Positions 1 to 18,050 of a stretch of 58,325 bases of DNA are shown here, one piece after another (the first letter of the stretch is position 1; every line of letters begins with the position of its first letter). The stretch is taken from positions 1 to 58,325 of the forward strand of contig DAOTWV010000060.1 of the NCBI GenBank assembly GCA_034435695.1, given 5' to 3'. The notes beneath the pieces were generated by a model. It saw only the letters and a list, made by a program, of their open reading frames with translations, did not search any database and was not told the origin of the DNA. The stretch comes from Anaerolineales bacterium. GTDB taxonomy: Bacteria; Chloroflexota; Anaerolineae; Anaerolineales; DRKV01. Both the position numbers and the translations under genes were made by a program.

Positions 1-2237
1 TTTTCGATGCGCGTCAGGACGCGGCTGAGTTGGGTGATATCCGTGACTTCGATGAGCAGGTCGAAAACCGCGATGTTCTGGCTGTTGACGCGCACATCCA
101 CTTTGGGCATGTTGACGCCCTCTTTTTCCAGGATGGTGGAAATTTCGCGCATCAGACCGAGACGGTCGTAGGCCTGGATGCGTACCGCCACAGGCAATGT
201 GGCATGCCCCGGCTGGGTACGGAAGCCCCAACTGGCCTGTGTGAGGCGGTCACGGTCTTTGACTTTGCGGATGTTGGGGCAATCCTGGCGGTGAATGGTG
301 ACACCGCGCCCGCGGGTAATGTAGCCGATGATGGGTTCTCCGGGCAGGGGATGGCAGCAGCGCGCCATGTTGGTCAGCAAGCCCGTCATGCCCATCACGG
401 TGATGGCCTGTTGCGGGTCTACGCTTTCGCGGCTGGTGCTGGTGTATTCGCTGAGGTCTTCTTCTTCGCTTTCCTGCCGGGCGGCGCGTTCATCCAGTTC
501 CAGGCGGTTGATGACCTTGCCGGTGGTGAAATCGCCGCAGCCGATGGAAAAATACATGGCATCTACGGAGCGGAAGCCCAGTTCCTCGGCCAGATTTTCC
601 AGGTTGATGTCGGTGAACCCCAGACGCTTGAGTTCGTGTTCCAACTGCTCGCGCCCGCGGGTGATGTTGGCCTCTCTGGCCTGCTCTTTGAACCAGCGGC
701 GAATTTTGGATTTGGCGCGCTGGGTTTTGACCATCCCCAGATTGGGGTTGAGCCAGTCCCGGCTGGGGCCGCCTTTTTTGACGGTGATGATTTCCACCCG
801 GTCGCCCGTTTTGAGTTCGTAGTTCAGGGGGACGAGTTTGCCATTGACTTTGGCTCCCCGGCAGCGGTGCCCAATTTCGGTGTGAATCTGGTAGGCGAAA
901 TCGATGGGGGTGGCTCCCGCGGGCAGGTCAATCATGTCGCCGCGCGGCGTAATCACATACACCCGGTCGGCGAACACATCCGTTTTCATGCCATCCAGGA
1001 ATTCGCGGGCGTCCTGTACATCTTGCCGCCATTCCATCAGGGAGCGCAGATACCGAATTTTGCGCTCGAACTGGGCATCGCTGGTACGGCCTTCCTTGTA
1101 CCGCCAGTGCGCTGCGATACCTTCTTCGGCTTCGCGGTGCATTTCTTCGGTACGAATCTGGAATTCCAGGGTCTTGCCGTCGTCGTACACCACGGCAGTG
1201 TGCAGGGAACGGTAGTTGTTGTTCTTTGGGGCGGCGATGTAGTCGTCGAATTCGTGCGGAATAGGCCGCCAGTGACTGTGCACAACCCCCAGGGCGGAGT
1301 AGCAATACGTGGCTTCCAGTTTCTTGTTGACTTCGGGCGGTTCATTCGGGTTGACGAAGGTGGGCACGATGATGCGCACACCGCGAATATCGCTGAGCAT
1401 CTCGAAGGGGATGCCCTTACGCTTCATTTTGCGGTAAATGGAATAGATGTGCTTCGGCCGGCCGGTGACGCGGGCAGGAATTTCTGCCGATTGCATAATT
1501 TTGCGTACGCGGGCGATAATCTCCTGCATCTCGCGCTCGCGTTCATCCCGGCGTTCCTCCAGGGCATTGGCGATTTTGTAAAATTCCTCCGGCTCCAGAT
1601 AGCGGAACGAAAGGTCTTCCAACTCCCACTTCATTTGCCAGATACCCAGGCGGTTTGCCAGTGGTGCGAAGATGTCCAGCGTTTCTCTGGCGATGCGCCG
1701 CTGTTTGCGCTCCGGGACGTGGTGCAGGGTGCGCATGTTGTGCAGGCGGTCGGCCAGTTTTATCATCACCACTTCGGGCTGGTCGGCAACCGCCAGCATG
1801 ACCTTGCGCAAAGTTTCGGATTTGGCGTCATACTCCCGGCTGCGGGTCCACAATTCCGCCTCTTCGCCGTTGTTTTCTTCGTTGGCGCTTCCCAGTACCC
1901 CGACGCGAGAGACGCGCGGCAACCCCGTCAATTTGGTCACCCCATCCACCAGGATGGTAACCTGTTCGCCGAAATCGCGGCGCAGGTCATCCAGGGTGAC
2001 GTCGGTATCCTCTACCGTGTCGTGTAACAGCCCCGCCTGGATGACATAGGGTGCCGGGCGAAATTTTTCCACCAGGATGTGTGCGACCGAGAGGCAATGG
2101 GTGATGTACGGTTCCCCCGACGAGCGCATTTGTCCCTCGTGGGCTTTTTCGGCCACGTGATAGGCGCGCAGAATCAATTCCCGGTCGGCGTGGGTGTACA
2201 CAGAGGGAAGGGCTTGCATCAAGGTATCAATATCCAT
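1..2237 (-). CDS. rel: Bifunctional (p)ppGpp synthetase/hydrolase, RelA/SpoT (Rel) family; C-terminus lies beyond the left window edge (partial)
   Basis: Absent from the ORF track because no stop lies in the window. Hand translation of the minus strand from ATG (cat at 2235-2237) gives MDIDTLMQALPSVYTHADRELILRAYHVAEKAHEGQMRSSGEPYITHCLSVAHIL...AGLLHDTVEDT (HD hydrolase signature); I translated only this N-terminal stretch and take the remainder to the window edge (position 1) from ORF 30..2027, which reads as its antisense shadow. The 665-aa plus-strand ORF 30..2027 is its antisense shadow. Confidence 0.9.
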   Translation of the reverse strand, partial: MDIDTLMQALPSVYTHADRELILRAYHVAEKAHEGQMRSSGEPYITHCLSVAHILVEKFRPAPYVIQAGLLHDTVEDTDVTLDDLRRDFGEQVTILVDGVTKLTGLPRVSRVGVLGSANEENNGEEAELWTRSREYDAKSETLRKVMLAVADQPEVVMIKLADRLHNMRTLHHVPERKQRRIARETLDIFAPLANRLGIWQMKWELEDLSFRYLEPEEFYKIANALEERRDEREREMQEIIARVRKIMQSAEIPARVTGRPKHIYSIYRKMKRKGIPFEMLSDIRGVRIIVPTFVNPNEPPEVNKKLEATYCYSALGVVHSHWRPIPHEFDDYIAAPKNNNYRSLHTAVVYDDGKTLEFQIRTEEMHREAEEGIAAHWRYKEGRTSDAQFERKIRYLRSLMEWRQDVQDAREFLDGMKTDVFADRVYVITPRGDMIDLPAGATPIDFAYQIHTEIGHRCRGAKVNGKLVPLNYELKTGDRVEIITVKKGGPSRDWLNPNLGMVKTQRAKSKIRRWFKEQAREANITRGREQLEHELKRLGFTDINLENLAEELGFRSVDAMYFSIGCGDFTTGKVINRLELDERAARQESEEEDLSEYTSTSRESVDPQQAITVMGMTGLLTNMARCCHPLPGEPIIGYITRGRGVTIHRQDCPNIRKVKDRDRLTQASWGFRTQPGHATLPVAVRIQAYDRLGLMREISTILEKEGVNMPKVDVRVNSQNIAVFDLLIEVTDITQLSRVLTRIE

Positions 2238-3725: not shown

Positions 3726-3734
3726 ATCGTTTTT
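3693..3734. terminator. Bidirectional intrinsic terminator between convergent genes
   Basis: The perfect 16-bp inverted repeat (3693-3725) is followed by ATCGTTTTT on the plus strand and preceded by an A-rich run (U-rich on the minus strand). It sits between the stop of 2376..3542 (+) and the stop of 3733..4734 (-). Confidence 0.6.
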
Positions 3735-4734
3735 ACGCCTTGTGACGGTTGAGCCACCATATCGCCGCCAGCGCGAGTACACCAATCCCCAGTGCTGCCC
3801 ATTGACGCCAGTCACTCCCCTGGCCGGAAGCCGGGACAGGCAAACGGGTGGGGGTTCGTTGCGGGGGGATAGTGATGACGACGGTAGCCGGCGGCCCCAT
3901 CCACGCGGGCGTGGGGGTTGGTTCACGCGGCCCCGCAGGAGTCGGTGTGGGGGTTGGCGGTGCGGGCGTGGCTGTCGGCTGTGGAGTGATTTCTCCCGCG
4001 CGGTGAATCACCAGCCGGTCGCCGGGATACAGCACGGCATTGGCGGGCAAACCGTTCTGGCTCATCAATTGTGCAATACTGACCTTGTACGCGATAGCAA
4101 TGCTCCACAACGTCTCGCCGGGTTGTACGATGTGCACCACCGAGCCATCCGGACGCGGCGTAGAAGTCTGGATAGGGGTTTGCTCACCGTTTCCGGCAGA
4201 TGCCGTTACGGTGCTTTCTGGGGGTGCGGAGGATTGTTCGCCAGCCACGTACCCTGCCAGAAAGACGTAGTACACGCTATCGCCAGCAGAAGCCACCCCT
4301 GCCCCGGCATCGCGGTAATTCGGCCCCAGCATGGTATTCAGGTGCAGGTCATCTCCCTGCCACAGTGCCATAGCCTCATCCAGGCTCATCTGGTACCCCC
4401 CGGCAATGTTTTCGGAGATGAAAATCGTGCCGCCGTTGCCATACCCGGCCGCGGCTGCCCGTTCTTTGGGGCGCGTCCCGCCTTCGCCGGTATGTGTCAC
4501 CGTGCCGTTTGCGGCCTGCCAGTCGGCCTGTGCCTGTGCGGCCTGCATCAGTGCCTGATTAGCCTGATAGGCCGGTAAGCCGTTGACCTGCCGCAAGTGA
4601 TTCACAGCCGTCAGGATATCCTGGGGAGAAGCAAGGGGAGCAGGACGTCCCCAGGCAGGGGATGCCAGCCCCAACAGGAACAGCACCACCCCCAGGAACG
4701 CGGCGGGGAAACGGACTCGCTTGTGAGGGTTCAT
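3733..4734 (-). CDS. Secreted/membrane-anchored protein with a CAP (SCP/PR-1-like) domain, a LysM domain, a Pro/Thr-rich linker and a C-terminal TM anchor
   Basis: 333 aa. N-terminal signal peptide FPAAFLGVVLFLLGLASPAWG. CAP-like region (ILTAVNHLRQVNGLPAY...HTGEGG...NIAGGY). LysM-like HIVQPGETLWSIAIAYKVSIAQLMSQNGL...LYPGDRLVI. PTPTPTP linker. C-terminal WAALGIGVLALAAIWWL. The start overlaps the upstream stop (ATGA at 4731-4734). Confidence 0.75.
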   Translation of the reverse strand: MNPHKRVRFPAAFLGVVLFLLGLASPAWGRPAPLASPQDILTAVNHLRQVNGLPAYQANQALMQAAQAQADWQAANGTVTHTGEGGTRPKERAAAAGYGNGGTIFISENIAGGYQMSLDEAMALWQGDDLHLNTMLGPNYRDAGAGVASAGDSVYYVFLAGYVAGEQSSAPPESTVTASAGNGEQTPIQTSTPRPDGSVVHIVQPGETLWSIAIAYKVSIAQLMSQNGLPANAVLYPGDRLVIHRAGEITPQPTATPAPPTPTPTPAGPREPTPTPAWMGPPATVVITIPPQRTPTRLPVPASGQGSDWRQWAALGIGVLALAAIWWLNRHKA

Positions 4735-5291
4735 GCTTCCAGGGGGGCCTCATCCCCGATGGGGGAGTCTGTTTCCCCCTCCTGCTGGTAGGGCAGCCTG
4801 CCGCCCAGCCAGACGGTCATCAAACTGATGTCGTCATCACTGGCTTCGCTTTGGGGGTAAGCCTCGCGAAAAGCAGCCACAATCACATCGAAGTGCTCAC
4901 CCGCCGGCCACACAGTCAGGAAACCGGGCAGGGCGGTACGGTCGGCTTCGGGAGGCAGCAATTCCCAGCCGCGACTGGTCAACAAATCATGCACCTGCTG
5001 GCGCAGTTCGGGCAGGCTGTTCGCCCAGGCGGCCAGCAGAAGGGCGGTGAATTCCGGGTGCTTTTCGAATGCCTTGATGGTGGGTTGCACCCGCACGGCT
5101 ACAGGCGCCTTGCGCGCATCCCGAAAACCAGGCACTTTTACCAGTTTCTTCGTCAGGTTGCCAAACTTGCGCGCCAGGTCTGGCGGCAGGGAGCGGGTAT
5201 GCTGCAACGCGCGCCGCACCACCTGGGTGCGGTACTCGTTGAGCATGAACTCGTTGATGGCATGAAAGGGGAGAAAAGCGGTTTTTTTCAT
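4731..5291 (-). CDS. Hypothetical protein (186 aa), no domain recognised
   Basis: The track ORF 4731..5441 has an Arg/Pro-rich, implausible N-terminus. The internal ATG at 5291 gives MKKTAFLPFHAINEFMLNEYRTQVV.... It is co-directional with and 20 nt downstream of the patatin gene, and ATGA-coupled to the CAP/LysM gene. Confidence 0.55.
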   Translation of the reverse strand: MKKTAFLPFHAINEFMLNEYRTQVVRRALQHTRSLPPDLARKFGNLTKKLVKVPGFRDARKAPVAVRVQPTIKAFEKHPEFTALLLAAWANSLPELRQQVHDLLTSRGWELLPPEADRTALPGFLTVWPAGEHFDVIVAAFREAYPQSEASDDDISLMTVWLGGRLPYQQEGETDSPIGDEAPLEA

Positions 5292-5311: not shown

Positions 5312-6076
5312 TTACAGCCCCAGGTCGGCGCGCAGTTGTGGAAGGGCAGCGCGCGCCGCCTGAACGCCGCGCTGGTAGAGCGCATCTGCCTGCGTAAAAC
5401 GCAGGTACGTCCGGCCTTCCAGGTCGGGGCGGATAAGACAATTGGCGTGTTGGTGTCCCAGGCCGGCATTTTGCACCATGCGCTCAATCGCGCTGAACAG
5501 GTATCCCCACGGCCCCCAACGGGTGCGCAATGCCGGGATGAAGATGTCCACGCCAATCACGTACTCCGCGCCGAGTTGGCGCGCCACATCCACGGGGACG
5601 CTATCCACGAAAGAACCGTCCACCAGTTCCCGCCCCTGCCAGTCCATGGGTTCGACGAAACCAGCCACCGAGCCGCTGGCGCGCACGGCGGGCAGGACGC
5701 GCCCACTGGTGAAGACCACCCGCTCTCCGCTCTTGATATCCATGGCAACGGTAGCGAAGGGTTTGGGTAAGTCTTCGAAGAGAGGGTCGCCAATGAGGTT
5801 TCCCATCCAGGTTTCCATTTTGCGGAAGGAAACCAGCCCGCGGCGCGGCCACACTGGAGAGACGAGGTGCCACCAGCGTGTGCTGCGTGCCAGGGAAAGC
5901 CCTCTCTCCAGGGGGACGCCACCCAGGTACAGTGCGCCCATGATGGCTCCCGCACTGGTGCCGGCCACCACGTCGATGGGAATGCCGGCCTCCTCAAGGA
6001 CGGAGAGCACCCCCAGGTGGGCGATACCGCGCACGACACCGCCTCCCAGCGCCAGACCAACTACCGGACGTGTCAT
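5312..6076 (-). CDS. Patatin-like phospholipase (RssA-like)
   Basis: This is the C-terminal 254 aa of track ORF 5312..6631, starting MTRPVVGLALGGGVVRGIAHLGVL. It has the oxyanion GGGxxRG motif, the GTSAG nucleophile elbow, and the DGS/DGG catalytic Asp (LVDGSFVD). The ATG at 6076 overlaps the Fe-ADH stop (ATGA). Confidence 0.88.
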   Translation of the reverse strand: MTRPVVGLALGGGVVRGIAHLGVLSVLEEAGIPIDVVAGTSAGAIMGALYLGGVPLERGLSLARSTRWWHLVSPVWPRRGLVSFRKMETWMGNLIGDPLFEDLPKPFATVAMDIKSGERVVFTSGRVLPAVRASGSVAGFVEPMDWQGRELVDGSFVDSVPVDVARQLGAEYVIGVDIFIPALRTRWGPWGYLFSAIERMVQNAGLGHQHANCLIRPDLEGRTYLRFTQADALYQRGVQAARAALPQLRADLGL

Positions 6077-7233
6077 GCGGGCTGCCCGTCGAATGCCGTG
6101 CGATACAGGGCTTCCAGTTCTTCTCGCACGGGGATGCGGCGTGAGGTGACCAGGGAGGGGTCCATCTCGGCGCGGTCGCACAAATCGGCGAGCCGTTCTT
6201 CCAGCATGGCCTGGGAAACGCCGGCTTGCTGCAGGGTAAGCGGCTGTCCCAGCGATTCGAGCAGGGTGCGGATGGCCGCCGCCAGCGCCATGCCGGCGCT
6301 CTCTTCGTTTTCGTGGGGCAGGCCCAGGAGGCGCGCCAGGCCGATGTAACGCCCCGCACCGCCGCGTGCAGTGTATTCGATGGTGTAGGGCAGCAGCAAG
6401 CCAGTGACGCGGCCATGCGGGATGCCAAAGAGTGCTCCGGCGCTGTGCCCCAGGGCATGCGCCAGGGCAATGTGGCTGTTGTTGATAGCCAGCCCGCCGA
6501 GGGTAGCCGCGTTGGCCATGTGGGTGCGGGCTTCCATGTCGTCGGCGCCATTGCGGTAGGCCCGCGGCAGGTAGGTGAAGACCAGTTGGGCGGATTGCAA
6601 TGCCAGGCCATCGCTGAAATCGTTGTTCCACGTGCTGGAGAAGGCCTCCACGGCGTGGGTGAGCACGTCTATGCCGGTATCTGCGGTGACCTGGGCTGGC
6701 AGATTGGCCGTGAAGGACGGGTCAATGAGTGCCAGTGCGGGCAGCAATTCGTAGGAGGCGACTTCCAGTTTGCGCACCTCGTCCGGGTCTTTGATGACTG
6801 CGGCGGTGGTCACTTCTGCGCCGGAACCAGCGGTGGTTGGAATGGTAATCAGGCGGGCTTTGGTGCCCAGTCCAAAGTGCTCGAATGGGTTTACGGCCTC
6901 CAGGGGCACATCCGGGCGCTCATAGCGGAACCAGGCGGCTTTGGCTGCATCCAGGCTGGAACCGCCGCCCAGTCCGATAACCCAATCCGGGGAGGAATCG
7001 GCCATTTGGAGGGCGCAGCGTTCCACGGTGGGGATGGATGGGTCAGGTTCCACATCGGCAAACAGGGACACCTGTAAGCCGGCTTGTTCCAGCAGGGTGC
7101 GGACGCGCTCTGCGAAACCGAGGTGTACCATGTTTTGGTCGGTGACAATCAGGGCACGGTGTCCCTGGATTTGTGTCAATTCATCCAGGGCTTCTTCACC
7201 GAAGACGATGCGAGGGCTACGGAAAAACCACAT
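6073..7233 (-). CDS. Iron-containing (group III) alcohol dehydrogenase
   Basis: Start moved to the internal ATG at 7233 (MWFFRSPRIVFGEEALDEL), which has an AAGGAG RBS 8 nt upstream. Fe-ADH signatures present: GLGGGSSLDAAKA, DTGIDVLTHAVEA, HALGHSAGALFGIPHG. Confidence 0.88.
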   Translation of the reverse strand: MWFFRSPRIVFGEEALDELTQIQGHRALIVTDQNMVHLGFAERVRTLLEQAGLQVSLFADVEPDPSIPTVERCALQMADSSPDWVIGLGGGSSLDAAKAAWFRYERPDVPLEAVNPFEHFGLGTKARLITIPTTAGSGAEVTTAAVIKDPDEVRKLEVASYELLPALALIDPSFTANLPAQVTADTGIDVLTHAVEAFSSTWNNDFSDGLALQSAQLVFTYLPRAYRNGADDMEARTHMANAATLGGLAINNSHIALAHALGHSAGALFGIPHGRVTGLLLPYTIEYTARGGAGRYIGLARLLGLPHENEESAGMALAAAIRTLLESLGQPLTLQQAGVSQAMLEERLADLCDRAEMDPSLVTSRRIPVREELEALYRTAFDGQPA

Positions 7234-7301
7234 GAGGGCACTCCTTTTGTCTCGTGGTAGAATGGTGGGGCGAGGAAAGACATATAGCAAAAGAAAACAG
7301 C

Positions 7302-8573
7302 ATGGACGAACTCAAAAAAACAGCCCTGGTGCTGGCGGGCGGCGGCCTGACCGGCGCGGTGTATGAAATTGGTGCGCTACGCGCCATCAATGACCTGTTG
7401 ATTGACCGCACGGTCAATGATTTCGATATTTTCGTGGGCACCAGCGCCGGTGCGCTGGTGGGGGCAATGCTGGCCAACGGGATAACGCCTGAAGACATGA
7501 TGCAGGCTGTAGCCGGTTCGCACCCGGAATTGCTGCCCATTGAACGCAAGCATATTTTCAACATCAAACGCAGTGAATTGTTGCAACGCGGCCTGGCGCT
7601 GCCGAAAAAGGTGACGCGTTCCTGGTGGCGGTTTTTACGCAGCAGCGACATGACTTTTTTCGACCTGGCATGGTCTCTGCTGGATGTGCTGCCTGCCGGG
7701 TTCTATGATGGCATGGCGCTTGACCGGTACGTGCGCGAGACGCTACGGCAGCGCGGAAAATGCAATTGTTTCACGGAACTGGAAAAAGACCTCTTCATCG
7801 TGGCAACAGACCTGGATTCAGGAGACCGTGCGGTTTTCAGTCGCGAGACGCCGGATGTGCCTGTTTCTCTGGCGGTGGCGGCTTCCTCGGCTATCCCGTT
7901 GGTGTACCGCCCGGTGCGCATTGGGGAATGTGAGTACGTGGATGGCGGTTTGCGCGGGAACGCCAGTCTGGATATCGCTATCGAGGCGGGAGCCACGCTG
8001 ATTGTGTGTATCAACCCGATGGTGCCCTTCGATAATCGGGACCACCACTCCATTCCAGAAAGGATACTGATGGGGAGCCGGGGAGCGCGATACCTGAGCG
8101 AGAGCGGGATGAACTTCATTGCCAATCAGGTGACGCGCATCCTGACTCATGCCAGCATCCGATATCACGTCAAGCAATTGCGCCGCACCCACCCGGAGGT
8201 AGACATCATCCTGATTGAGCCGCGTCCGGATGACTATGAAATGTTTTTCTACAACCCGATGCGGTATTCTGCCCGACTGGAGATTGCGCGTTACGGCTTT
8301 GAATCGGCGACGGTGGGGCTGGCGGAGGAATACGCGTTGTACAAGGCTACGCTGGCACGCCACGGCATTCCCATTACGCGCCGGCTGGTCATCCAGGAAC
8401 TGGCAGCCCTGGAAGAGGTAGAGGACGGAGAGGCACGCCGCGAGGTGTTACGGCGTATTCTCGAAGCCCGCAAGGTAACCTACCAGCACCGGGAGGGCAA
8501 CCCGCTGTGGCAGTTGCAGCGCACCCTGACGGAGTTGGAATACCTGCTGGCCGATTCCAGCGGGTCAGAGTAA
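7302..8573 (+). CDS. Patatin-like phospholipase with a long C-terminal extension
   Basis: Start at the internal ATG 7302 (MDELKKTALVLAGGGLTGAVYEIGAL). It has GGGxxG, GTSAG and VDGGLRGN motifs. An extended -10 TGGTAGAAT lies at about 7254-7262. The 3' end overlaps the convergent SCP2 gene by 9 nt. Confidence 0.85.
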   Translation: MDELKKTALVLAGGGLTGAVYEIGALRAINDLLIDRTVNDFDIFVGTSAGALVGAMLANGITPEDMMQAVAGSHPELLPIERKHIFNIKRSELLQRGLALPKKVTRSWWRFLRSSDMTFFDLAWSLLDVLPAGFYDGMALDRYVRETLRQRGKCNCFTELEKDLFIVATDLDSGDRAVFSRETPDVPVSLAVAASSAIPLVYRPVRIGECEYVDGGLRGNASLDIAIEAGATLIVCINPMVPFDNRDHHSIPERILMGSRGARYLSESGMNFIANQVTRILTHASIRYHVKQLRRTHPEVDIILIEPRPDDYEMFFYNPMRYSARLEIARYGFESATVGLAEEYALYKATLARHGIPITRRLVIQELAALEEVEDGEARREVLRRILEARKVTYQHREGNPLWQLQRTLTELEYLLADSSGSE

Positions 8574-8966
8574 TTTTGCGCTTATCTCAGGGTAGAGTTT
8601 GCGTCCCTGGGTGAAGATATCCCCCAGGGCGGTAGCCTTCCAGATGGGGCCGCGCACGTGCACCTGACGGCGTGCCAGGGCCTCCTTGAGGGAAAGTTCG
8701 TCCAGCAGGATGCGATGCAGGGTTTCGGCTTGCAGGCGCACATCCAGGTCGGGACGCAGTTTTTTCTGGTTGCCGTAGTGCACCTGTACAGGGGGCATGC
8801 GGCCGTCAATCAGAACGGTGGCTTGCGGGGCAGTGGTTTCCAGGCGGATGACCAGACGGGAGCGCGTCAGGGCATCCAACGCGTTGCCGTTCTGGTGTTG
8901 CAGGGTCTCGAAGAGGTGCTGCAGCACGGTGTACAGGTGGGTATCATCGCGGTAGGGGGAGGACAT
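8565..8966 (-). CDS. SCP2 sterol/lipid-carrier domain protein
   Basis: 133 aa, last gene of the minus-strand operon, 3 nt after the acyltransferase stop. SCP2-like layout: VIRLETT...VLIDG...V....D..L.A.TLHRILLDELSLKEALARRQVHVRGP. Confidence 0.7.
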   Translation of the reverse strand: MSSPYRDDTHLYTVLQHLFETLQHQNGNALDALTRSRLVIRLETTAPQATVLIDGRMPPVQVHYGNQKKLRPDLDVRLQAETLHRILLDELSLKEALARRQVHVRGPIWKATALGDIFTQGRKLYPEISAKLL

Positions 8967-8969
8967 GGC

Positions 8970-10139
8970 TTATCCGAAGAATATCGAGCGGCGTTGTGAG
9001 AGGCGCTTGTAAATCATCTCCTGGACGATGTTGCGCGTCTGGTCGGTGAGTTGGGAGACCAGGACGAGGTTATCGGCAGCGTCCGGGCTGTAGCCGTCCA
9101 TGGCAAGGGGTTCTCCGAAGTCGATGTACCATTTGGTGGGCAGGGGAATCAGCCCCAGCAGCCCCAGCCAGGGCCACGTCGGGCTGATAGGGAAGTAGGG
9201 GAAACCTGTGAGTTTTGCCAGAGTTTGCGATTTGTAAAGCGAGATGTAGGTTTCCTCTGCGCCTACGACGGCTACGGGAATGATGGGGGCGCGTGCTCGC
9301 AATGCCATGCGCACAAATCCACCCCGGCCAAAGCGCGCCAGACGATACCGGTCGCGGAAGAGTTTGCCCACGCCCTTGTACCCTTCCGGGAAGACGGCCA
9401 CCAATTCATCGGCTTCCAGCAGGCGGATGCCGTTTTCTTCGTTTGCCATAGCCTGTCCCAGTTTCTCGAATGTGGCTGAGATGAAGGGCAGGGTGGGGAA
9501 CCAGTCGGCGTACAGGGTGCGCACCAGACGGCGGGCGGGGTGTTCGTTGTACACGGCCAGGCCAATCATGCTTCCGTCGAAGGGGAGTTGCCCGGAGTGG
9601 TTGGCCACCAGCAAGGCCCGGCCCTCCTCCGGGACGTTTTCCAGCCCGGTGACTTCCACGCGCCAGTACTTGTAATACAGGAACTCGAAGAAGGGGCGCA
9701 CGGCTTCCAGGAATTCCATGTCCAGGCCCCATTCATCGGTTTCATATTCGCCTGTCATGCGGCGTTTGAGGATATCCCCCTGGTATTCCAGGGTGTAGTT
9801 GAGCATGTACCAGATGCCTTTCCAGGTATCCGGGTCGAAAAGGTCTTCGTTGATAGTCTCGCGCAGACGTTCCAGGATGTTGAGTTGGAAGTCGGCAGGA
9901 AGACGGGCGATGTTTTCGCGAATCAGGTCGATGAGGGCGCGCGGGGTGAAGGGAGGCGGTGTGTAGTCGGGTTGCCGGGCACGGATGCGCTCGATGAGGT
10001 CATCCAGTTCTTTTTTCAGGTCGGCGCGAAAGGCTGCGTCGTCCTCTGGCGAGGCGGCTTCGGGTTGTTGCGAGGTATCCTGGGGGGCAGCGGCGGGTTC
10101 CTCCGTCGGTGTGGTTTGCAATTCGTCCTGTTCGTTCAT
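8970..10139 (-). CDS. PlsC/LPLAT-family acyltransferase (lysophospholipid acyltransferase-like) with an acidic N-terminal extension
   Basis: 389 aa. Motif I-like LLVANHSGQLPFDG, motif III VFPEGYKG, motif IV APIIPVAVVGAEE. Only 3 nt gaps to both neighbouring genes. Confidence 0.8.
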   Translation of the reverse strand: MNEQDELQTTPTEEPAAAPQDTSQQPEAASPEDDAAFRADLKKELDDLIERIRARQPDYTPPPFTPRALIDLIRENIARLPADFQLNILERLRETINEDLFDPDTWKGIWYMLNYTLEYQGDILKRRMTGEYETDEWGLDMEFLEAVRPFFEFLYYKYWRVEVTGLENVPEEGRALLVANHSGQLPFDGSMIGLAVYNEHPARRLVRTLYADWFPTLPFISATFEKLGQAMANEENGIRLLEADELVAVFPEGYKGVGKLFRDRYRLARFGRGGFVRMALRARAPIIPVAVVGAEETYISLYKSQTLAKLTGFPYFPISPTWPWLGLLGLIPLPTKWYIDFGEPLAMDGYSPDAADNLVLVSQLTDQTRNIVQEMIYKRLSQRRSIFFG

Positions 10140-10142
10140 CGT

Positions 10143-11195
10143 TCAGGCTCCTTTGGATTGGCGAGCGGCGTAGGTTCTGCGACGACGTTCGATGATATCG
10201 CGCAGGCGTTCTTCGTCATAAGTGCGACTGGCGGCTTCGGGCATATACCGACGCATGCGTTGCTGCCCGGCAAATTCCCGTAAGGCCTCCTCGGCAGTGT
10301 ACTGAGGCATGAAGCCCAGCACTTCGTGCATACGCTGCGTGTCGGCTACCCAGCGATAGCGCAGGTAATCCGGTTCGATGGGGAAATGCCGCGCCAACGG
10401 CCCGCCGGCACTGACAGCCCAATAGGCTGCCGGGTGCAGCACAGGGAGGGGGATTTTGCCCACAATGGCCAGTATTTTGGTCAGGGGCAAGATGCCTTCC
10501 GCTGCGACGTTGTATACGCCGGGGTAATCCTCCTGGATGGTGTGCATCAGAGCAGCGAGGACATCTTCCTGGTGGATGACTTGCATCATGGGGTCAAAGC
10601 CCAGCAAAATGGGGGCTTTGCTATCGCTCAGGAAACGTACAAGGGGGGTGTTGACATCCGGCCCAATGATTCCAGGGAAGCGCAGGATGGTGAGGGTAAT
10701 TTTCGGGTATTGGCGTCGGAAGCCGTTGAAGAAAGATTCGATTTCCAGGTTATCCCGGTTATACCCGTACTGGCGGCTGCCGTGTACGGGGCGTTCTTCG
10801 CGCAGGAAAGCAGGATTGCGCGGGGACGCGCCGTACACCCGCGTGCTGCTTTTGAAAACCACCTTGCGCACACCGGCCTCGGCGCAGGCGCCCATGAACT
10901 TCATGGTGCCGATGACGTTGTGGTCGAAGGCCGATTCGGTGCGCCGGTAACTCTCGATGAAGGCCAGGTGACACACCGTGTCCACTTTTTCCAGTTGCAG
11001 TAATTCCAGCAGGAGCGGGTTGCGGATGTCTGCCTGGATGAAGTCCAGGTTTTTGATTTCTTTTTTGGGCGGATGGGCGTCAATGCCTATCACACGCAGG
11101 CCAGGGGTATCACACAAACGCGTGGCCAGGCGGCTTCCCCACTGGTTGGCTACGCCAGTGATGAGGACGGTTTTGGGTTTTTTCTTTCGGGGCAT
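10143..11195 (-). CDS. Extended-SDR, NAD-dependent epimerase/dehydratase-family protein (atypical active site)
   Basis: 350 aa with an AGGAG RBS. N-terminal Rossmann VLITGVANQWGSRL. Epimerase-like core VVFKSSTRVYG...QYGYNRDNLE, where the expected YxxxK reads YxxxR by eye. Confidence 0.75.
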   Translation of the reverse strand: MPRKKKPKTVLITGVANQWGSRLATRLCDTPGLRVIGIDAHPPKKEIKNLDFIQADIRNPLLLELLQLEKVDTVCHLAFIESYRRTESAFDHNVIGTMKFMGACAEAGVRKVVFKSSTRVYGASPRNPAFLREERPVHGSRQYGYNRDNLEIESFFNGFRRQYPKITLTILRFPGIIGPDVNTPLVRFLSDSKAPILLGFDPMMQVIHQEDVLAALMHTIQEDYPGVYNVAAEGILPLTKILAIVGKIPLPVLHPAAYWAVSAGGPLARHFPIEPDYLRYRWVADTQRMHEVLGFMPQYTAEEALREFAGQQRMRRYMPEAASRTYDEERLRDIIERRRRTYAARQSKGA

Positions 11196-11223
11196 GGTGA
11201 CTCCTGAAGACTGGAAGGGCAGG

Positions 11224-13404
11224 TTACTTTTTGCGGCGGAACAAGAGGAAGAGGCTCAAGAGGGCAAAACCGGCGGTCAGCCAGGCCCAGGTGCTTTCTT
11301 CGTCTCTGCGGCGGACGCCTTTGGCGGCTGGCGGAAGTTTGGCCAATTTTTGGGCAGCCTCAGCCTGGAAGCGGGCGAAACGTTCAGGGTCATTGCGCAG
11401 CGCATCGGCCAGGGCGCGTTTTTCGGCGACGAAGTCATCGGTGACGTAGCGTCCAAAGGAACGAAGCCCGGCAATCTGGAACTGGTGTTTTTTGAAGAGT
11501 TTGTAGATTTCCTTGACTTTTTCGATGGAGATGTTGCGTCCCAGCGTGTAATCTTCGAAGCGCCCTTCCATTGCCAGGAGGGCCGTTTCTGCCAGGCAAG
11601 CATAGGCTGTCTTGGGCGGCAGGCCGATGTCGTAGCCAAAGTCGATATCGCCGGGAATCAAGACTTCTCCGCTTTCGATGACGAGTACATCCGGGCGCAG
11701 GGCGGCTTCTTCCTCGCTGATATCGGGGGGGCGGGCTACATCGCAGATGACAGCCCCTGGTTTGCAGCGGGTGATGTCAATCACGCGTTGACCAAAGGCC
11801 GATGTGGTGGTAACAATCAAATCACAATCGCCGACGACTTCGTCGGTGCGGGTGGCGATGGTAACGTGTGCCTGAGGGGTTTCTTCCAGAATGCGGCGTT
11901 TCAAGTCTATCAATTTGGCGGGGTTGGGCGCTACCAGAACGACATCGTAAATGGCTTGTGCCAGCAGGCGGGAGCACACCGCCCCAATGGAGCCGGTTGC
12001 GCCCACGACCATGGCTTTGCCTTTGGTCAGGTCTTGCGCGCCCATCTTGATTACCGCCTGTTTGGCGGCTTCAAGCGTGGCGGCCACTGTCAGACTGTTG
12101 CCGCTGGTAATGGCGATATCGGCTTCGTGCGCCACGGTGATGCCGGCATCTCCCACGACGCTGGTGAATGCTCCCAGCCCCATGATGCGCGCTCCCAGGC
12201 GTTCAGCCATACGGGCAGCCTGATTGAGTTTCCGATAGGTGAAATGTTCGCTGTGGCGCATCATCTGGCGCGGGGTAGCGCCCAGGGAAATCAAATGCCC
12301 TTCGATTTTTTGCCCCGTGGTGGGAGATTGCCCGCCGGTGATACGCGAGATGTAGATGGGCGGAATGTAGGCCGCGATGGTCTCGACGAGTGCATCGGGC
12401 AGGTACCGCGTCCACCGGAACCACTTGTGCTTGTGGATGAATTCTACGTTGAGGGGGTGGATGACGAAGGCGAAGCGGTTGATTTCGGCTTCGTCAGGTT
12501 GCAAAAAGTGAATTACCGGCTGCCACTCGAGGTCGGCGACCATATCCAGGTACGTGTTTTCGGTCAGCGGTTGGGATTCATCGTGGCGCAAAGCCACGAG
12601 GACAGCCTCTACCATGGCCGCGGAACGATGGTCCAAATCCCCATCCGATTCGAGTTTGGGAATGAGGTTGACCACAATGGAGACCCCGCGCTGGCGCAAG
12701 TCGTCCAGGTCTTCGGCGCTTGCCCATTCGGTGACCACAATTTTGCGTTTGAGTCTGGCAGGGGCGTAACGGCGGATAGCGCCAATGTCTCCCGCGAGCA
12801 CATCTGCCCAAAGGAATGGCTTTTCGCTGCGCGGTGTCCCAGGGTTTCCCGCCTGGGGCGTGATGCGCCGGAAAGGAGCCTCGTTGAGTTGTTCCAGGGT
12901 AGGGAGAGCGATGCGTGAAGCCAGGTTGGGGGAGGTGAACAGTGGAAAATCGGGTAAAGCGAAATACACAACAGGGTCGGCGTAGCGAATGTCCTCGGTG
13001 TAGCGCCGCATTCCTTTTACCAAACTCTGATGGTTGAGGCCGGGAACCATCAGAACGCGCTTTTTGCTGAACAAACCAGGCTGGGCGCGCTCTGCGAGGA
13101 TGAGGCTCCAACTCTCCAGGCTGTGACGCACCCCATGTCCGTCCACCACCGGGGTGTTGGGGGCCGCCTCAGGAAAGGTACTACCTGTTTTGTGATACAT
13201 GCGATAGCCGGCCAGGTTGAGTTCTGCCGGGTACCCTTCCAGGCCGATAGCGTCCACCTGCCCATCGTGTTCCTGCAACAGGGCACGGACGCGTTCGGGG
13301 TCTCCCCCAGCCCCAACCCTGCGTACATGAATTTCTTCTCCCAGAATGCGGGCAACGGTTTGCTCTTCTCCCTCACCCAGGTGTACAATCAGAACTTTCT
13401 TCAT
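11224..13404 (-). CDS. Tripartite fusion: uncharacterised N-terminal domain (about 330 aa), long-chain acyl-ACP reductase (AAR)-like dehydrogenase domain, and a C-terminal TM anchor
   Basis: 726 aa. The C-terminal half aligns by eye with cyanobacterial acyl-ACP reductase: [37 protein letters not shown] (Rossmann), [35 protein letters not shown] (Cys at the position of the AAR catalytic Cys). The tail [21 protein letters not shown] is a TM anchor. GAGG RBS. Confidence 0.7.
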
Positions 13405-13419
13405 GATGGCCTCGGTTTT

Positions 13420-13851
13420 TCACTTCAATGCCAGGTGTCCATACCCTTTTTCTCGCAAGAGTGCCGGATATCGTTTGTACAAAGGTTGCACGGCGGGGAG
13501 CAACTTGAGAATTTTAGGGATTGGGCCTTCGGCGATGATGTCTTTTTTGGCCAACGCCCCCATCAAATTGACTTTGCCATGCCAGAATGCGTGTGCAATG
13601 TCGGCCTTCATGCGCATCACTACGTCAGGTTTGAGGTCGCAGTCTCCGTGAATAACATCCACATAAGCGCCAGGCTGCGTGGGTTTGCTGCGCGCATTGA
13701 TGGTCGTCATGGCCTCTGGTTCGGTATAGCGAAACTGGATGACGATACCCGATTTCCCGATTTTCCCCCCCACCTTGGGGTCCATCTTAGCCTCATCCAT
13801 CAAGGCACCGACGCAATCGTAAAACTCCTGGGATGTTTTGAAAACGGACAT
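13420..13851 (-). CDS. SCP2 lipid-carrier domain protein (first gene of the operon)
   Basis: The internal ATG at 13851 of track ORF 13420..14028 gives MSVFKTSQEFYDCVGALMDEAK...GIVIQFRYTEPEAMTTINA...MRMKADIAHAFWHGKVNLMGALAKKDIIAEGP (SCP2-like). GAGGAG RBS 7 nt upstream. Confidence 0.7.
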   Translation of the reverse strand: MSVFKTSQEFYDCVGALMDEAKMDPKVGGKIGKSGIVIQFRYTEPEAMTTINARSKPTQPGAYVDVIHGDCDLKPDVVMRMKADIAHAFWHGKVNLMGALAKKDIIAEGPIPKILKLLPAVQPLYKRYPALLREKGYGHLALK

Positions 13852-13911
13852 GACACGCTCCTCTGTGTGTTGAAAAAGCCTGCAAAGAAAGTTGTACGGA
13901 CGTATAAAGGT

Positions 13912-13940
13912 AGTATAGTCACCTTGCTGCATCGCGTCAA
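13912..13940 (-). promoter_or_regulatory. Sigma-70-type promoter of the SCP2/AAR-like/SDR/acyltransferase/SCP2 operon
   Basis: The minus strand reads TTGACG (13940-13935), a 17-nt spacer, then TATACT (13917-12), about 60 nt upstream of the SCP2 ATG. It is back-to-back with an extended -10 TGGTACAAT (13962-13970) for dsbA on the plus strand. Confidence 0.5.
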
Positions 13941-14007: not shown

Positions 14008-14850
14008 ATGGACATGCAACCAGAACAAGAAGAACTGAAATCCCCCGAAACAACCGAACAGAGCATCTCCCCGAAAGAATCAGAGTCCTCCCCTGTGTTG
14101 AGCATCCAACTGTATTCGTGGGCGACCCCCATAGTTGCCCTCGTCGCCCTGGTGGTAGGGTTGCTGGGAGGCTATTTTTTGCGCCCCGTGATTAGCGGCG
14201 AGAAAAGCGCGCCTGTGGCGGCTGGCACCGTTGCCACCGCAGAACCCATAGACCCGCAAGCCGCGTTACCAGCTACACCTCCGGAAGACCTGGAAGCCCG
14301 CCGTAAGGCGCTCATGGACGCGCTGCTTGCACAAACCAAGCACTTCAAAGGCAATCCGGATGCGCCAGTTACGATTCTGGAGTTCAGTGATTTTCAGTGC
14401 CCATACTGCGGGCGCTTTTTCGCTGAAGTGGAACCACAAATCAATCAACAGTACATCGAGAACGGACAGGTGCGCATGGGGTACATCCACTTTGCCTTTC
14501 TGGGACAGGAGTCTCTGTGGGCGGCTGAGGCCAGCGAGTGCGCTGCCGACCAGGATGCCTTTTGGGAGTTTCACGATAAACTTTTCAACAGCCAAAACGG
14601 CGAAAATCGTGGCGCGTTCAGCAAGGATAACCTGAAGAAATTTGCCGCAGAGTTAGGACTGGATACGGATACCTTCAACCAGTGCCTGGATGGCGGCAAG
14701 TACAGCGCCTACGTTCAGTCACAAGTAAACGTGGGGCGACAGATTGGTGTGCAAAGCACCCCCACGTTTCTTGTCAATGGACAGGCTGTCGTCGGTGCAC
14801 AGCCATTCAGTGCTTTTCAGCAGGCTATCGAGAACAGTCTTGGGCAGTAG
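14008..14850 (+). CDS. DsbA-family thiol:disulfide oxidoreductase, membrane-anchored
   Basis: This is the C-terminal 280 aa of track ORF 13030..14850, with the ATG at 14008 after a GGAGAAG RBS. It has a TM segment (WATPIVALVALVVGLLGGYF) and a thioredoxin-fold CPYC motif (FSDFQCPYCGRF). Confidence 0.85.
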   Translation: MDMQPEQEELKSPETTEQSISPKESESSPVLSIQLYSWATPIVALVALVVGLLGGYFLRPVISGEKSAPVAAGTVATAEPIDPQAALPATPPEDLEARRKALMDALLAQTKHFKGNPDAPVTILEFSDFQCPYCGRFFAEVEPQINQQYIENGQVRMGYIHFAFLGQESLWAAEASECAADQDAFWEFHDKLFNSQNGENRGAFSKDNLKKFAAELGLDTDTFNQCLDGGKYSAYVQSQVNVGRQIGVQSTPTFLVNGQAVVGAQPFSAFQQAIENSLGQ

Positions 14851-14853
14851 GGT

Positions 14854-15474
14854 ATGAAGCAAAAGCATTTCATCGACTCGCACAAAGGCGCCACCTTTTT
14901 CTTTGTGTTGGCGTTGATTGCCTGGTACCGGCAATGGGAAAATCCCACTGCGTGGATATACCTCGCCCTGCACGGCTCTTACGGTTTCCTGTGGGTGCTG
15001 AAGAGTCGCATTTTTCCCGATAAGCAATGGGAACAGCCCGCTTCTATCTGGTATGGGCTGTACATCTGGGGTGGGCTTTCGCTTTACTGGGTGGCTCCCT
15101 GGATGTTGACTTCCCGCAGTGTACACGCGCCTGCATGGCTGCTTGGTGCGTGCGTATTCCTGTATGCCTTTGGCGTGTTCACGCACTTTAGCAGTGACAT
15201 GCAAAAGTACGTACAATTGCGCCTGAACCCCGGCCACTTGATTACGGATGGCTTTTTTGCTTATAGCCGTAATATCAATTACTTTGGGGAGTTGTTGATT
15301 TACCTTAGTTTTGCTTTGCTCCCCATGCATTGGTTGCCGGTGCTTATTCTTGTTGTGCTCATAGGCTTTGGATGGATGCCTTACATGCGTCGCAAGGAGG
15401 CCTCCATTTCTCGTTATCCTGAATTTGCGGACTACAGCCGGCGGGTGAAGAAATTCATTCCCTTTGTGTGGTAG
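14854..15474 (+). CDS. Polytopic membrane protein, ICMT/PEMT/DUF1295-like putative methyltransferase
   Basis: 206 aa, 3 nt after the dsbA stop. Multiple TM segments. The C-terminal LITDGFFAYSRNINYFGELLIY...RRKEASISRYPEFADY is typical of the isoprenylcysteine carboxyl methyltransferase / steroid-reductase-like superfamily. Confidence 0.6.
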   Translation: MKQKHFIDSHKGATFFFVLALIAWYRQWENPTAWIYLALHGSYGFLWVLKSRIFPDKQWEQPASIWYGLYIWGGLSLYWVAPWMLTSRSVHAPAWLLGACVFLYAFGVFTHFSSDMQKYVQLRLNPGHLITDGFFAYSRNINYFGELLIYLSFALLPMHWLPVLILVVLIGFGWMPYMRRKEASISRYPEFADYSRRVKKFIPFVW

Positions 15475-16406: not shown

Positions 16407-17864
16407 TTATTCTTCTGCGGTGGTTTCTTCTTCAGCCGCGGGGGCGGCTTCTTCGGAGGTGCTTTCCTCTTCCGATGGCGCTTCTTCAGGGGCGGCTTCT
16501 TCAGCCGTCTCTGTTTCGCTTTGCGGCTCCTCGGCCTTGCCCTGAGCGATTTCGCTCAAGCGGGCGGTCGCTTTGTCGGTTACCAAATCCATCATGACCG
16601 AACTGACCAGTTCGTTGATGGCCTGTCGGTTTTTGAGCAATTTGCGAAATTCTTTTTCCGGCATGCGATTGGCGAGGGTATCCAACACAGCCAGGGTACC
16701 GTTTTGCACTTCTTCTTCACTGGGCTCGATTTTTTCTTCTTCAGCGAGTTGGTAGACTACCAGAGAACGGCGTACCCGGTATTCTGCGGCATCACGCAAT
16801 TCCGCATTGAACTCCTCTTCATTTTGTTCTTTGATTTTCAGGTACGTTTCCAGTGAAATGCCCTGTTGCGCAAGGTTGCTGGTAAAGTCCTCGCGCAGTT
16901 CCTCCAGTTCTCTCTCCAGGGCTACCGGCGGATATTTGATTTCGGACTGCTCGACCAGGGCATCCAGCGCCTGATTTGCGTATTCCTTATCGTATTCTGC
17001 GCGCTTGGACTCTTCCAACATGGTGCGCACTTCAGCACGCAAGTCATCCATGGTTTCGAAATCGCCCACGGATTGTGCGAATTCATCGTCCAGTTCGGGA
17101 AGTTCCCGCTCGGTGACTTTTTCCACTTTGATGTGGAAACGTGCCTTGACGCCCTGGAACATCTCGCTTTCGAAATCTTCGGGGAATTCGTGTTCGACTT
17201 CTTTTTCCTCACCCGTGGACATGCCCACCACCAGACGCGAAAAACCAGGGAATGGCCACTCGTGTTTGGTGTCTGCGTCTTCCGGCTCCACAAGTACCGG
17301 CACGTGACGGTCGGTGAGCAGGGCTTTTTCTTCACCCTCAGCAGCATCCAGGCGTTCTGCATTCAGGGTGATGTGCACCATGTCCCCATCTTGCGCCGGG
17401 CGGTCAACGGTGATGACCGTAGCCTGCCGTTGTCGCAACATCTCGATGAATTCGTCCACCTCTGCATCCGTGATTTCTTCATATTCGTAGGGCAGGCGCA
17501 GGGATTTGTAATCTCCCAGGGTGACTTCAGGCACCAATGGGACGGTGAAAACCAGTTTGAGCGGTTTGAGGTTGACGATATCCTCCAGTTTGCCTGGAGC
17601 AGCCGGTTCCACCTCGGCTTCGTCCAGCGCTTTAGGGTAGATTTCGTCAATCAGGATATCGATGGCCTTTTCAATGATGGCAGCCTCTCCCACCTGGCGG
17701 GCGACCACATCGTAGGGGGCTTTGCCCGGGCGGAAGCCAGGGATTTTGGTTTTGCGCGCGATATCGCGTGCAGCACGGCGCTGGGCACGTTCAAAGGTTT
17801 TGTCTTCGACCTCAATGGTCAGCGTTACCTGATGGTCTTCGGTGTATTTCTTTTCGAGTTTCAA
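16407..17864 (-). CDS. tig: Trigger factor
   Basis: The true start is most likely TTG at 17864 (caa at 17862-17864), preceded by GAAGGAAGTGGAG. The product (M)KLEKKYTEDHQVTLTIEVEDKTFERAQRRAARDIARKTKIPGFRPGKAPYDVV matches the trigger-factor N-terminus. It has an acidic low-complexity C-tail. The track ORF extends spuriously to 18089, across the tRNA. Confidence 0.9.
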   Translation of the reverse strand: MKLEKKYTEDHQVTLTIEVEDKTFERAQRRAARDIARKTKIPGFRPGKAPYDVVARQVGEAAIIEKAIDILIDEIYPKALDEAEVEPAAPGKLEDIVNLKPLKLVFTVPLVPEVTLGDYKSLRLPYEYEEITDAEVDEFIEMLRQRQATVITVDRPAQDGDMVHITLNAERLDAAEGEEKALLTDRHVPVLVEPEDADTKHEWPFPGFSRLVVGMSTGEEKEVEHEFPEDFESEMFQGVKARFHIKVEKVTERELPELDDEFAQSVGDFETMDDLRAEVRTMLEESKRAEYDKEYANQALDALVEQSEIKYPPVALERELEELREDFTSNLAQQGISLETYLKIKEQNEEEFNAELRDAAEYRVRRSLVVYQLAEEEKIEPSEEEVQNGTLAVLDTLANRMPEKEFRKLLKNRQAINELVSSVMMDLVTDKATARLSEIAQGKAEEPQSETETAEEAAPEEAPSEEESTSEEAAPAAEEETTAEE

Positions 17865-18038: not shown

Positions 18039-18050
18039 AAAGCGGAAAGG

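Follow-up and report, generated by a model that had tools for sequence, protein, structure and literature searches.

Organization of the locus

The window analyzed here is a stretch of 58,325 nucleotides (positions 1–58,325 of contig DAOTWV010000060.1) from the Anaerolineales bacterium assembly GCA_034435695.1 (Chloroflexota), and our study focuses on a group of genes found in its first 14 kb. Five minus-strand genes, named g1 to g5, encode in this order a small SCP2-like protein, a two-domain reductase, an extended short-chain dehydrogenase/reductase (SDR), a PlsC-family acyltransferase and a second SCP2 protein. They are separated by gaps of 15, 28, 3 and 3 nt, and a GAGGAG ribosome-binding site is positioned 8 nt upstream of the g1 start codon (ATG at 13851). 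The gene of a patatin-like protein (patatin-1) converges on g5, with a 9-nt overlap at the g5 end, and diverges from the gene of an iron-containing alcohol dehydrogenase (Fe-ADH). The stop codon of Fe-ADH and the start codon of a second patatin gene (patatin-2) share an ATGA overlap, the signature of translational coupling. These 3–28 nt gaps and the ATGA coupling point to co-translation.

A preliminary description of this DNA, made from the sequence alone, had reported the same arrangement. All ten open reading frames (ORFs), the spacing, the convergent overlap, the ATGA coupling and the ribosome-binding site are indeed present where it placed them. In addition, an independent gene call on a near-identical metagenome-assembled genome (MAG) contig at NCBI gives the same lengths for g2 to g5, patatin-1, Fe-ADH and patatin-2 (726, 350, 389, 133, 423, 386 and 254 aa). 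The near-consensus promoter proposed upstream of g1 also exists as a site, but cannot be distinguished from background: four promoter-like sites were found in the region against 3.2 expected from shuffled sequences, without enrichment. Because such sites are no commoner than in the shuffles, TTGACG-17-TATACT is a plausible promoter candidate only. The coordinates of all features are collected in Table 1.

Table 1 Genes and features of the locus, with positions in the window and the basis of each assignment
Feature	Position	Strand	Basis
g1, divergent SCP2-like small protein, 143 aa, putative lipid carrier	13420-13851	(-)	profile-level homology
g2, two-domain AAR/PigE-type reductase protein, 726 aa	11224-13404	(-)	NCBIfam, PDB, AF2/Foldseek
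g3, extended SDR (NAD-dependent epimerase/dehydratase family), atypical motifs, 350 aa	10143-11195	(-)	Pfam
g4, PlsC/LPLAT-family acyltransferase, 389 aa	8970-10139	(-)	Pfam PF01553
g5, SCP2-family small protein, 133 aa, putative lipid carrier	8565-8966	(-)	Pfam SCP2
patatin-1, patatin-like esterase/lipase, 423 aa	7302-8573	(+)	Pfam Patatin
Fe-ADH, iron-containing (group III) alcohol dehydrogenase, 386 aa, candidate aldehyde reductase	6073-7233	(-)	Pfam
patatin-2, RssA-like patatin-like esterase, 254 aa	5312-6076	(-)	Pfam Patatin
186-aa ORF	4731-5291	(-)	
CAP/LysM secreted protein	3733-4734	(-)	
sigma-70-like promoter candidate TTGACG-17-TATACT, upstream of g1	13912-13940	(-)	10/12 consensus matches

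Conservation of the gene block

A database search with g2 returned more than 3,400 matches. Among the best 120, which are 66–88% identical to g2 and 699–753 aa long (most of them 725–745 aa), all named organisms are Chloroflexota. A library clustered at 50% contains 3,516 representatives of the g2 family at E ≤ 0.001, including full-length relatives down to ~30% identity and standalone proteins of ~350 aa. A genome scan built on the alignment of 15 Cys-containing sequences yielded the best 80 species-level loci, hereafter designated by L numbers. Within Chloroflexota, these loci belong to Anaerolineae, Caldilineales, Ardenticatenaceae and Chloroflexales, including Roseiflexus, Oscillochloris and Herpetosiphon. 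Other loci come from Myxococcota, Acidobacteriota, Cloacimonadota, Clostridia and Gammaproteobacteria, the latter carrying the C-terminal domain of g2 only (60–63% identity).

In the lineage to which the window belongs, a block of eight genes (SCP2a, reductase, SDR, acyltransferase, SCP2b, patatin, Fe-ADH, patatin) is shared by at least six independent contigs (L001, L029, L047, L084, L085 and L086). Their flanks differ, the block being bordered by MutS, by DsbA with DUF1295 or by PhaR with phasin. The same set occurs in rearranged order in L002, L026 and L037, and is joined by an AMP-binding ligase in L002, L029 and L047. Moreover, 20 of the 120 top g2 matches lie on contigs of exactly the same size as those of the 120 top g4 matches, which indicates that g2 and g4 are widely linked in metagenomes. 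Since the eight genes recur with different flanks, their clustering exceeds chance. It is a genuine cluster, maintained in uncultured Chloroflexota.

Neighbours of g2 were counted over the 80 loci by tblastn and clustering. SCP2 is present in 18 loci, Fe-ADH in 15, the acyltransferase in 14, patatin-2 in 12 (found with Fe-ADH), the SDR in 11 and patatin-1 in 7. Hence, the co-conservation of the five genes, which the preliminary description had set as a check on its reading, holds for a sizeable set of relatives, but not for most reductase homologues, which stand alone. Both situations can coexist, as illustrated by a single MAG that carries solitary and clustered g2 paralogues (L016, L031).

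The g2 reductase

Protein g2 is made of an N-terminal two-lobed α/β domain (residues ~1–300), an AAR/PigE-type NAD(P)H thioester reductase domain (~305–665), a helical linker containing LPPAAKGV and a C-terminal hydrophobic tail (~701–722) followed by RRKK. The best NCBIfam model for its C-half is PigE (193.7 bits, over profile positions 45–356 only). Searches against the PDB retrieved PigE (4ppm, E = 1e-31) and the cyanobacterial acyl-ACP (acyl carrier protein) reductase AAR (6jzq, E = 1e-16), with the Cys aligned in both cases. In the AF2 model (pLDDT 87), the predicted C-half has the AAR fold, as judged from Foldseek matches to 6jzq, 6jzy and 6jzu (E ~1e-18, TMt 0.73–0.77), and the model can likewise be superposed on ‘TAD’, an AAR-like domain from the carmabin pathway. 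The NADPH motif GATGSIG is located at residue 468. Cys603, within AYACLAET, aligns with the FACFAE segment of AAR and corresponds to Cys294 of AAR and Cys296 of PigE. The N-domain of PigE, with Cys296 as the equivalent residue, is an experimentally supported thioester-to-aldehyde reductase (PMC8341465). In the alignment of the 66 locus homologues, Cys603 is kept in 63 sequences and GATGSIG in 54.

The preliminary description had called this domain acyl-ACP-reductase-like and had listed, among the outcomes that would refute its reading, better scores to unrelated dehydrogenase families together with a Cys not conserved in orthologues. The AAR fold and the retained Cys speak against that outcome. 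The PigE model is closer than that of AAR (194 versus 82 bits).

The N-half of g2, modeled separately (pLDDT 88), gave only weak fold matches (TM 0.3–0.46), on which we assign it no function. These are two-lobed α/β proteins, namely sugar-binding proteins, AAR/TAD and amino-acid dehydrogenases, and on the basis of the model this half could possibly be a degenerate duplication of the reductase fold. At the other end of the protein, a conserved [LI]PPxAKGV motif (LPPAAKGV in g2) precedes the hydrophobic tail (window 11224–11360, residues ~683–726). A comparable tail is found in 37 of the 66 homologues, and the amino-acid sequence of the hydrophobic helix and of the RRKK stretch suggests a tail anchor.

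The [LI]PPxAKGV motif is also retained at the extreme C-terminus of tail-less gammaproteobacterial reductases (L073). Distant full-length paralogues of g2 (28–37% identity; the alignment includes P0134, P0150, P0155 and P0203) keep the two-domain architecture. P0134, P0150 and P0203 retain a hydrophobic tail with a basic end, and the alignment of P0155 stops before the tail. Neither the catalytic Cys nor GATGSIG is left in any of these four, which therefore look like pseudo-enzymes. Database labels of g2 homologues are misleading in places. One protein is named ‘LPXTG-motif cell wall-anchored protein’ by JGI, probably owing to its hydrophobic tail. Several NCBI entries bear the name ‘serine carboxypeptidase’, which no domain or structure search backs; it looks like a propagated misannotation and was disregarded.

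Proteins encoded around g2

The preliminary family assignments were largely supported by Pfam, which recovers the epimerase/extended SDR, the PF01553 acyltransferase, the SCP2 domain of g5, the two patatins and Fe-ADH; the SCP2-like character of g1 is seen at the profile level only. Indeed, g1 has no direct sequence match in Pfam, NCBIfam or the PDB. It is 31% identical to g5, and hhalign comparison of the two orthologue families gives a full-length match with 99.8% probability (E = 9e-28). Seven orthologues of g1 are 65–92% identical to it. The g5 protein scores 24.1 bits against Pfam SCP2 (PF02036; cut-off 21.3), and 11 of its 13 orthologues match the same model, with a best E value of 6e-13.

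The g3 protein matches Pfam Epimerase (PF01370) with 81.7 bits, and its best PDB match is GalE (E = 4e-13). Its motifs are atypical. The cofactor motif reads TGVANQWG in g3, and TGxxGxxG in its orthologues (alignment of 11 orthologues). The g3 protein keeps the Ser, and it has YGxxR, with Arg for the Lys of YxxxK, a motif conserved in 9 of these 11. The HMMER alignment of g3 with GalE places an Asn at the position of the catalytic Lys.

The acyltransferase domain of g4 (residues 160–291) reaches 63.8 bits against PF01553 (cut-off 23). The protein has more than 6,000 database relatives and no PDB sequence match, and its best NCBIfam matches, which are weak, are lysophospholipid or acylglycerol-phosphate (AGP) acyltransferases. 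Two motifs, NHSGQLPFDG (NHSGQLP[FW]DG in orthologues) and FPEGYKG, are conserved in orthologues and are both variants of the usual ones: the His-Asp spacing in NHSGQLPFD is longer than HX4D, and FPEGYKG stands in place of FPEGTR. In addition, g4 has an N-terminal extension of ~150 aa (window 9690–10139) that carries the DTWKGIWYMLNY motif (DTWKG.WYM.NY, repeated). In three loci (L031 5601–6263, L063 12255–12935, L074 12280–12957), which are devoid of SDR and acyltransferase, this N-domain forms a protein of its own, ~220 aa long and encoded between g2 and SCP2. The standalone form is preceded by a Cys/His-rich segment (C..C..C..H). The domain may be a membrane- or inclusion-binding module.

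Both patatins contain the GGG and GTSAG motifs and match Pfam Patatin (PF01734), with 102 bits for patatin-1 and 108 bits for patatin-2. Patatin-1 has the DGG motif. In patatin-2 the Asp motif departs from DG[GA] and reads DGS; the score of this protein against NCBIfam RssA (116 bits) is under the cut-off. The position of patatin-1 is conserved in L001, L029, L047, L062, L084, L085 and L086. Fe-ADH matches the Pfam models Fe-ADH (PF00465, 151 bits) and ADH_Fe_C (PF25137, 147 bits). In NCBIfam, it matches the AdhE C-half (331 bits), ErcA (243 bits) and lactaldehyde reductase (226 bits), all under the equivalog cut-offs.

Partners of the reductase in related loci

In about 14 of the 80 loci, one of them in a Cloacimonadota MAG, a PhaR-like regulator (PF07879/TIGR01848, PHB_acc_N) and a phasin (PF05597/TIGR01837) are encoded next to the g2 homologue (L001 7995–9248, L002 8584–9727, L064 4628–5872; also L024, L026, L028, L029, L031, L037, L042, L047, L062 and L063). 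The two genes are divergent and upstream of it, but directly downstream in the Cloacimonadota MAG. In some loci, lipid-binding CoxG/SRPBCC proteins are also encoded beside PhaR. No polyhydroxyalkanoate (PHA) synthase (PhaC) is visible in the annotated related loci.

Other lineages associate the reductase with different proteins. The gammaproteobacterial locus L073 (9265–13980) is an operon encoding a small HX4D-type PlsC acyltransferase, a standalone reductase, a Blc-like lipocalin, a rhomboid protein, DUF6627 and a C39-like peptidase with TPR, and the arrangement is similar in L076 and L078–L083. The reductase of the L073 type is 60–63% identical to the C-half of g2, and the acyltransferase is no orthologue of g4. 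A low-GC Clostridia MAG (L068 10001–13576) encodes an 808-aa g2-like protein and, directly after it, a thioester reductase of the fatty acyl reductase (FAR) type (NAD_binding_4, 172 bits; PRK07201, 301 bits). Taken together, the related loci repeatedly associate the reductase with acyl transfer, hydrophobic-ligand binding and inclusion proteins. The presence of PhaR and phasin beside it in relatives suggests that the product is kept in hydrophobic inclusions.

Proposed function

We propose that the products of the cluster make and turn over a neutral lipid whose precursor is a fatty aldehyde or a fatty alcohol, a reading to which we give a probability of roughly 0.45. The C-terminal tail would anchor g2 to the membrane or to the surface of a lipid inclusion. 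There, g2 would load a long-chain acyl thioester (acyl-ACP or acyl-CoA) on Cys603 and, like AAR and the PigE reductase domain, convert it to a fatty aldehyde at the expense of NAD(P)H. The g1 and g5 proteins would hold hydrophobic intermediates. Fe-ADH, and possibly the atypical SDR g3, would reduce the aldehyde or a keto intermediate to an alcohol, and g4, as a PlsC-type enzyme, would esterify either this alcohol or a backbone carrying an alcohol. A wax-ester-like lipid would be the simplest product, alkyl-acylglycerols and alkane-diol esters being alternatives, and the two patatin esterases would mobilize or remodel it. Overall, a route from acyl-ACP to aldehyde, alcohol and ester, as put forward in the preliminary description, is plausible. 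Gene order, protein families, fold, conserved catalytic motifs and co-conservation are seen in the data; substrate, direction, product, localization and storage role are inferred.

Several observations weigh against this proposal. With 82.1 bits, g2 does not reach the cut-off of the AAR equivalog TIGR04058 (449.7 bits), and because the score is so far under it, specificity for acyl-ACP cannot be assumed. The N-half of g2 has no profile match in Pfam, NCBIfam or the PDB, nor does the N-terminal extension of g4 have one in Pfam. From its sequence, which lacks the Lys of YxxxK and the middle Gly of TGxxGxxG, g3 may be weakly active or non-catalytic. No wax ester synthase/diacylglycerol acyltransferase (WS/DGAT) domain was found among the ten products, and no enzyme resembling alkylglycerone phosphate synthase (AGPS) in the cluster. 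PhaR and phasin were both missing from the window by tblastn. Finally, in about 60 of the 80 loci the g2 homologue has none of the neighbours counted above, and since most homologues are solitary, g2 does not need partner genes nearby.

A broader reading, which we hold to be doubtful, is that the tail-anchored two-domain reductase, together with SCP2, PhaR and phasin, represents an unrecognized form of neutral-lipid storage in Chloroflexota, with phasin-coated inclusions and analogues in other phyla, and that these are the missing genes of the Chloroflexota biomarker lipids derived from fatty alcohols. The lipid stored could be a wax ester, an alkyl-acylglycerol or a diol ester. In this reading, an AAR-class enzyme would be at work in organisms other than cyanobacteria and in a role unrelated to hydrocarbon and pigment pathways.

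Comparison with known systems and alternative readings

From its sequence and model, g2 resembles cyanobacterial AAR (TIGR04058; 6JZQ/6JZU) in its fold, its GATGxIG motif and the nucleophile at the Cys294 position, and would be expected to convert a thioester to an aldehyde via an acyl-enzyme. Unlike AAR, to which it is ~25% identical, it has an additional N-terminal domain of ~300 aa and a C-terminal membrane tail. Its surroundings also differ: no aldehyde-deformylating oxygenase or ferritin-like family was found among the ten neighbouring products with Pfam and NCBIfam, the neighbours being an acyltransferase, an SDR and SCP2 proteins. The best-scoring characterized relative of the reductase half is the thioester-reductase domain of PigE/TamH (NF053554; 4PPM; PMC8341465), enzymes that serve to make prodiginine and tambjamine, and the Cys is conserved in it. 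PigE itself is a fusion of this reductase with a class-III aminotransferase, and acts on a medium-chain 3-acetyl thioester in a pigment pathway (PMC8341465). In contrast, g2 has no class-III pyridoxal phosphate-dependent aminotransferase, scores 193.7 bits where 850 are required, and lies in a lipid context. In the plasmid collection, the relatives are all PigE-type fusions.

Wax-ester pathways, which combine an acyl-CoA/ACP reductase with WS/DGAT, share with our proposal the flow from thioester to aldehyde, alcohol and ester, a storage context and lipases. Unlike them, the cluster has neither WS/DGAT nor a FAR-type reductase, and its candidate for ester formation is a PlsC-family protein of an unclassified subfamily. 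By annotation only, the adjacent epimerase-family SDR and PlsC homologue recall Rv0501 (GalE2) and Rv0502 of Mycobacterium tuberculosis, a pair with which we know of no AAR-like reductase or SCP2 genes. Rv0502 is a conserved, uncharacterized PlsC homologue (PMC10593935).

By gene content, the closest analogue is the myxobacterial elb ether-lipid system. Like the cluster, the Myxococcus xanthus operons elbA-E and MXAN_1676-1674 encode a reductase, an acyltransferase and an epimerase-family SDR (Lorenzen 2014, reviewed in PMC9131029), and fatty-acid activation is found nearby in some relatives of the cluster. It is thus conceivable, if unlikely, that the cluster encodes an AGPS-independent, elb-like pathway to a 1-O-alkyl(-acyl)glycerol lipid, which the cell might store in the form of alkyl-diacylglycerol. 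In such a pathway, g2 would make the aldehyde, Fe-ADH or the SDR would process this aldehyde or a backbone of the dihydroxyacetone phosphate (DHAP) type, and g4 would transfer an acyl chain to glycerol phosphate or DHAP. The two M. xanthus operons each encode an acyl reductase together with an AGPAT/GNPAT-like acyltransferase and an NAD-epimerase-family protein, and ElbD and ElbE are genetically required in that organism (PMC9131029). The AMP-binding ligase of three related loci would match the acyl-CoA synthetase (ACS) function of ElbD, the weak best matches of g4 point in the same direction, and Chloroflexota have recently been flagged as possible ether-lipid producers (bioRxiv 10.64898/2026.06.23.733905). 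However, the ElbD reductase is FAR-like and fused with ACS, ACP and acyltransferase in one protein, whereas g2 belongs to a different reductase family. In the cluster, Pfam detects no NAD_binding_4/FAR, AMP-binding or ACP domain, and by description it has counterparts of ElbD and ElbE in the acyltransferase and the epimerase-family SDR only. AGPS, encoded in the second M. xanthus operon, is absent here; a 994-aa FAD-oxidase gene beside L001, considered as an AGPS-like candidate, was rejected since it is not recurrent. Conversely, the M. xanthus operons lack SCP2, patatin, Fe-ADH, PhaR and phasin. Moreover, the chemistry of the elb route is itself undefined, and our literature search gave no report of ether lipids from cultured Anaerolineae.

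The remaining readings are, in our view, less probable. The genes could be membrane-lipid housekeeping or remodeling genes linked by descent in one lineage rather than by function. The many solitary g2 homologues would fit this, as would the fact that operon-bearing loci are mainly from Anaerolineae-type Chloroflexota. We consider it quite unlikely, however: the gene set persists through rearrangements and changes of flanks at 55–70% protein identity, the short gaps and ATGA coupling argue for co-translation, and Gammaproteobacteria have arrived at analogous pairings, in which a non-orthologous acyltransferase and lipid binder are the partners of the reductase. The immediate proximity of PhaR and phasin to g2 in about 14 loci, across phyla, raises the question of PHA granule metabolism, in which 3-hydroxyacyl thioesters would be the substrates of g2, the polyester that of the patatins and the resulting hydroxy-aldehydes those of Fe-ADH, with no long-chain lipid made. 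The window differs from a pha locus in having neither PhaR nor phasin; relatives have both, but their annotated loci show neither PHA synthase nor classical depolymerase. The recurring partners (SCP2, CoxG/SRPBCC, lipocalin, PlsC acyltransferase, FAR) bind or act on long-chain lipids, and phasins can also coat triacylglycerol inclusions, so that a role in PHA metabolism appears very unlikely. Least probable of all, in our view, is the synthesis of long-chain alkane-1,2-diol lipids, where g2 would reduce a 2-hydroxyacyl thioester to a 2-hydroxyaldehyde, Fe-ADH would give the 1,2-diol and g4 would acylate it. These diols are a Chloroflexota trait whose biosynthesis is not yet settled (PMC2615216), g2 homologues are present in Roseiflexus MAGs, and lactaldehyde reductase, which Fe-ADH resembles (226 bits), turns a 2-hydroxyaldehyde into a 1,2-diol. 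On the other hand, Fe-ADH scores higher with the AdhE and ErcA models, the cluster has no fatty-acid 2-hydroxylase, no Thermomicrobia are among the best 80 loci, and the scheme is purely inferential.

Neighbouring genes

The preliminary description had placed Fe-ADH and patatin-2 in one operon with the 186-aa ORF and the CAP/LysM gene. Fe-ADH and patatin-2 are conserved with the cluster, but the other two genes (window 3733–5291) lie outside the conserved unit: they were not near the cluster in any related locus examined, and look like neighbours particular to this lineage. Pfam and NCBIfam gave no match for the 186-aa protein.

Upstream of g1, on the opposite strand, the window encodes a DsbA-like thioredoxin and a DUF1295/steroid-5-alpha-reductase-like membrane protein (14095–15474), then ClpP and trigger factor. 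This arrangement is syntenic in the closest relative, L085, and not in L084 or L001. A tRNA-Leu gene (anticodon TAG; 17956–18039, minus strand) sits inside the 5′ end of the trigger-factor ORF (16407–18089), so that the true tig start must lie downstream of the mechanical ORF start. At the beginning of the window, a 665-aa mechanical ORF (30–2027, plus strand) has no Pfam match and an odd-looking translation, and is probably the shadow of an opposite-strand gene running off the window start.

Significance

Sediments, hot-spring mats and activated sludge are rich in Chloroflexota. These bacteria are the source of diagnostic lipids, including wax esters, alkane-1,2-diol lipids and perhaps ether lipids, whose genetics is poorly defined. 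In the genome paper of T. roseum, diol synthesis ‘remains to be clarified’ (PMC2615216). Our literature search on the family (COG5322, AAR-like proteins, phasin and wax esters in Chloroflexi) gave no description of the cluster or of an association of the reductase with SCP2, patatin, Fe-ADH, PhaR and phasin. Its components are members of known superfamilies, their logic resembles that of wax-ester and myxobacterial ether-lipid systems, and no categorically new mechanism is indicated. The cluster is distinct in its AAR/PigE-class, not FAR-class, reductase, in the extra domain and tail anchor of this protein, and in the unclassified subfamilies of its acyltransferase and SDR.

The cluster is very common in metagenomes, where its products are unannotated or misleadingly annotated. 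If our proposal is true, it would provide a concrete gene set for a fatty-aldehyde/fatty-alcohol lipid pathway, which could help to explain the unusual lipids of the phylum. AAR-class thioester reductases would gain a new biological role, phasin and PhaR would be connected to non-PHA lipid storage, and new enzymes would become available for fatty alcohol or ester production.

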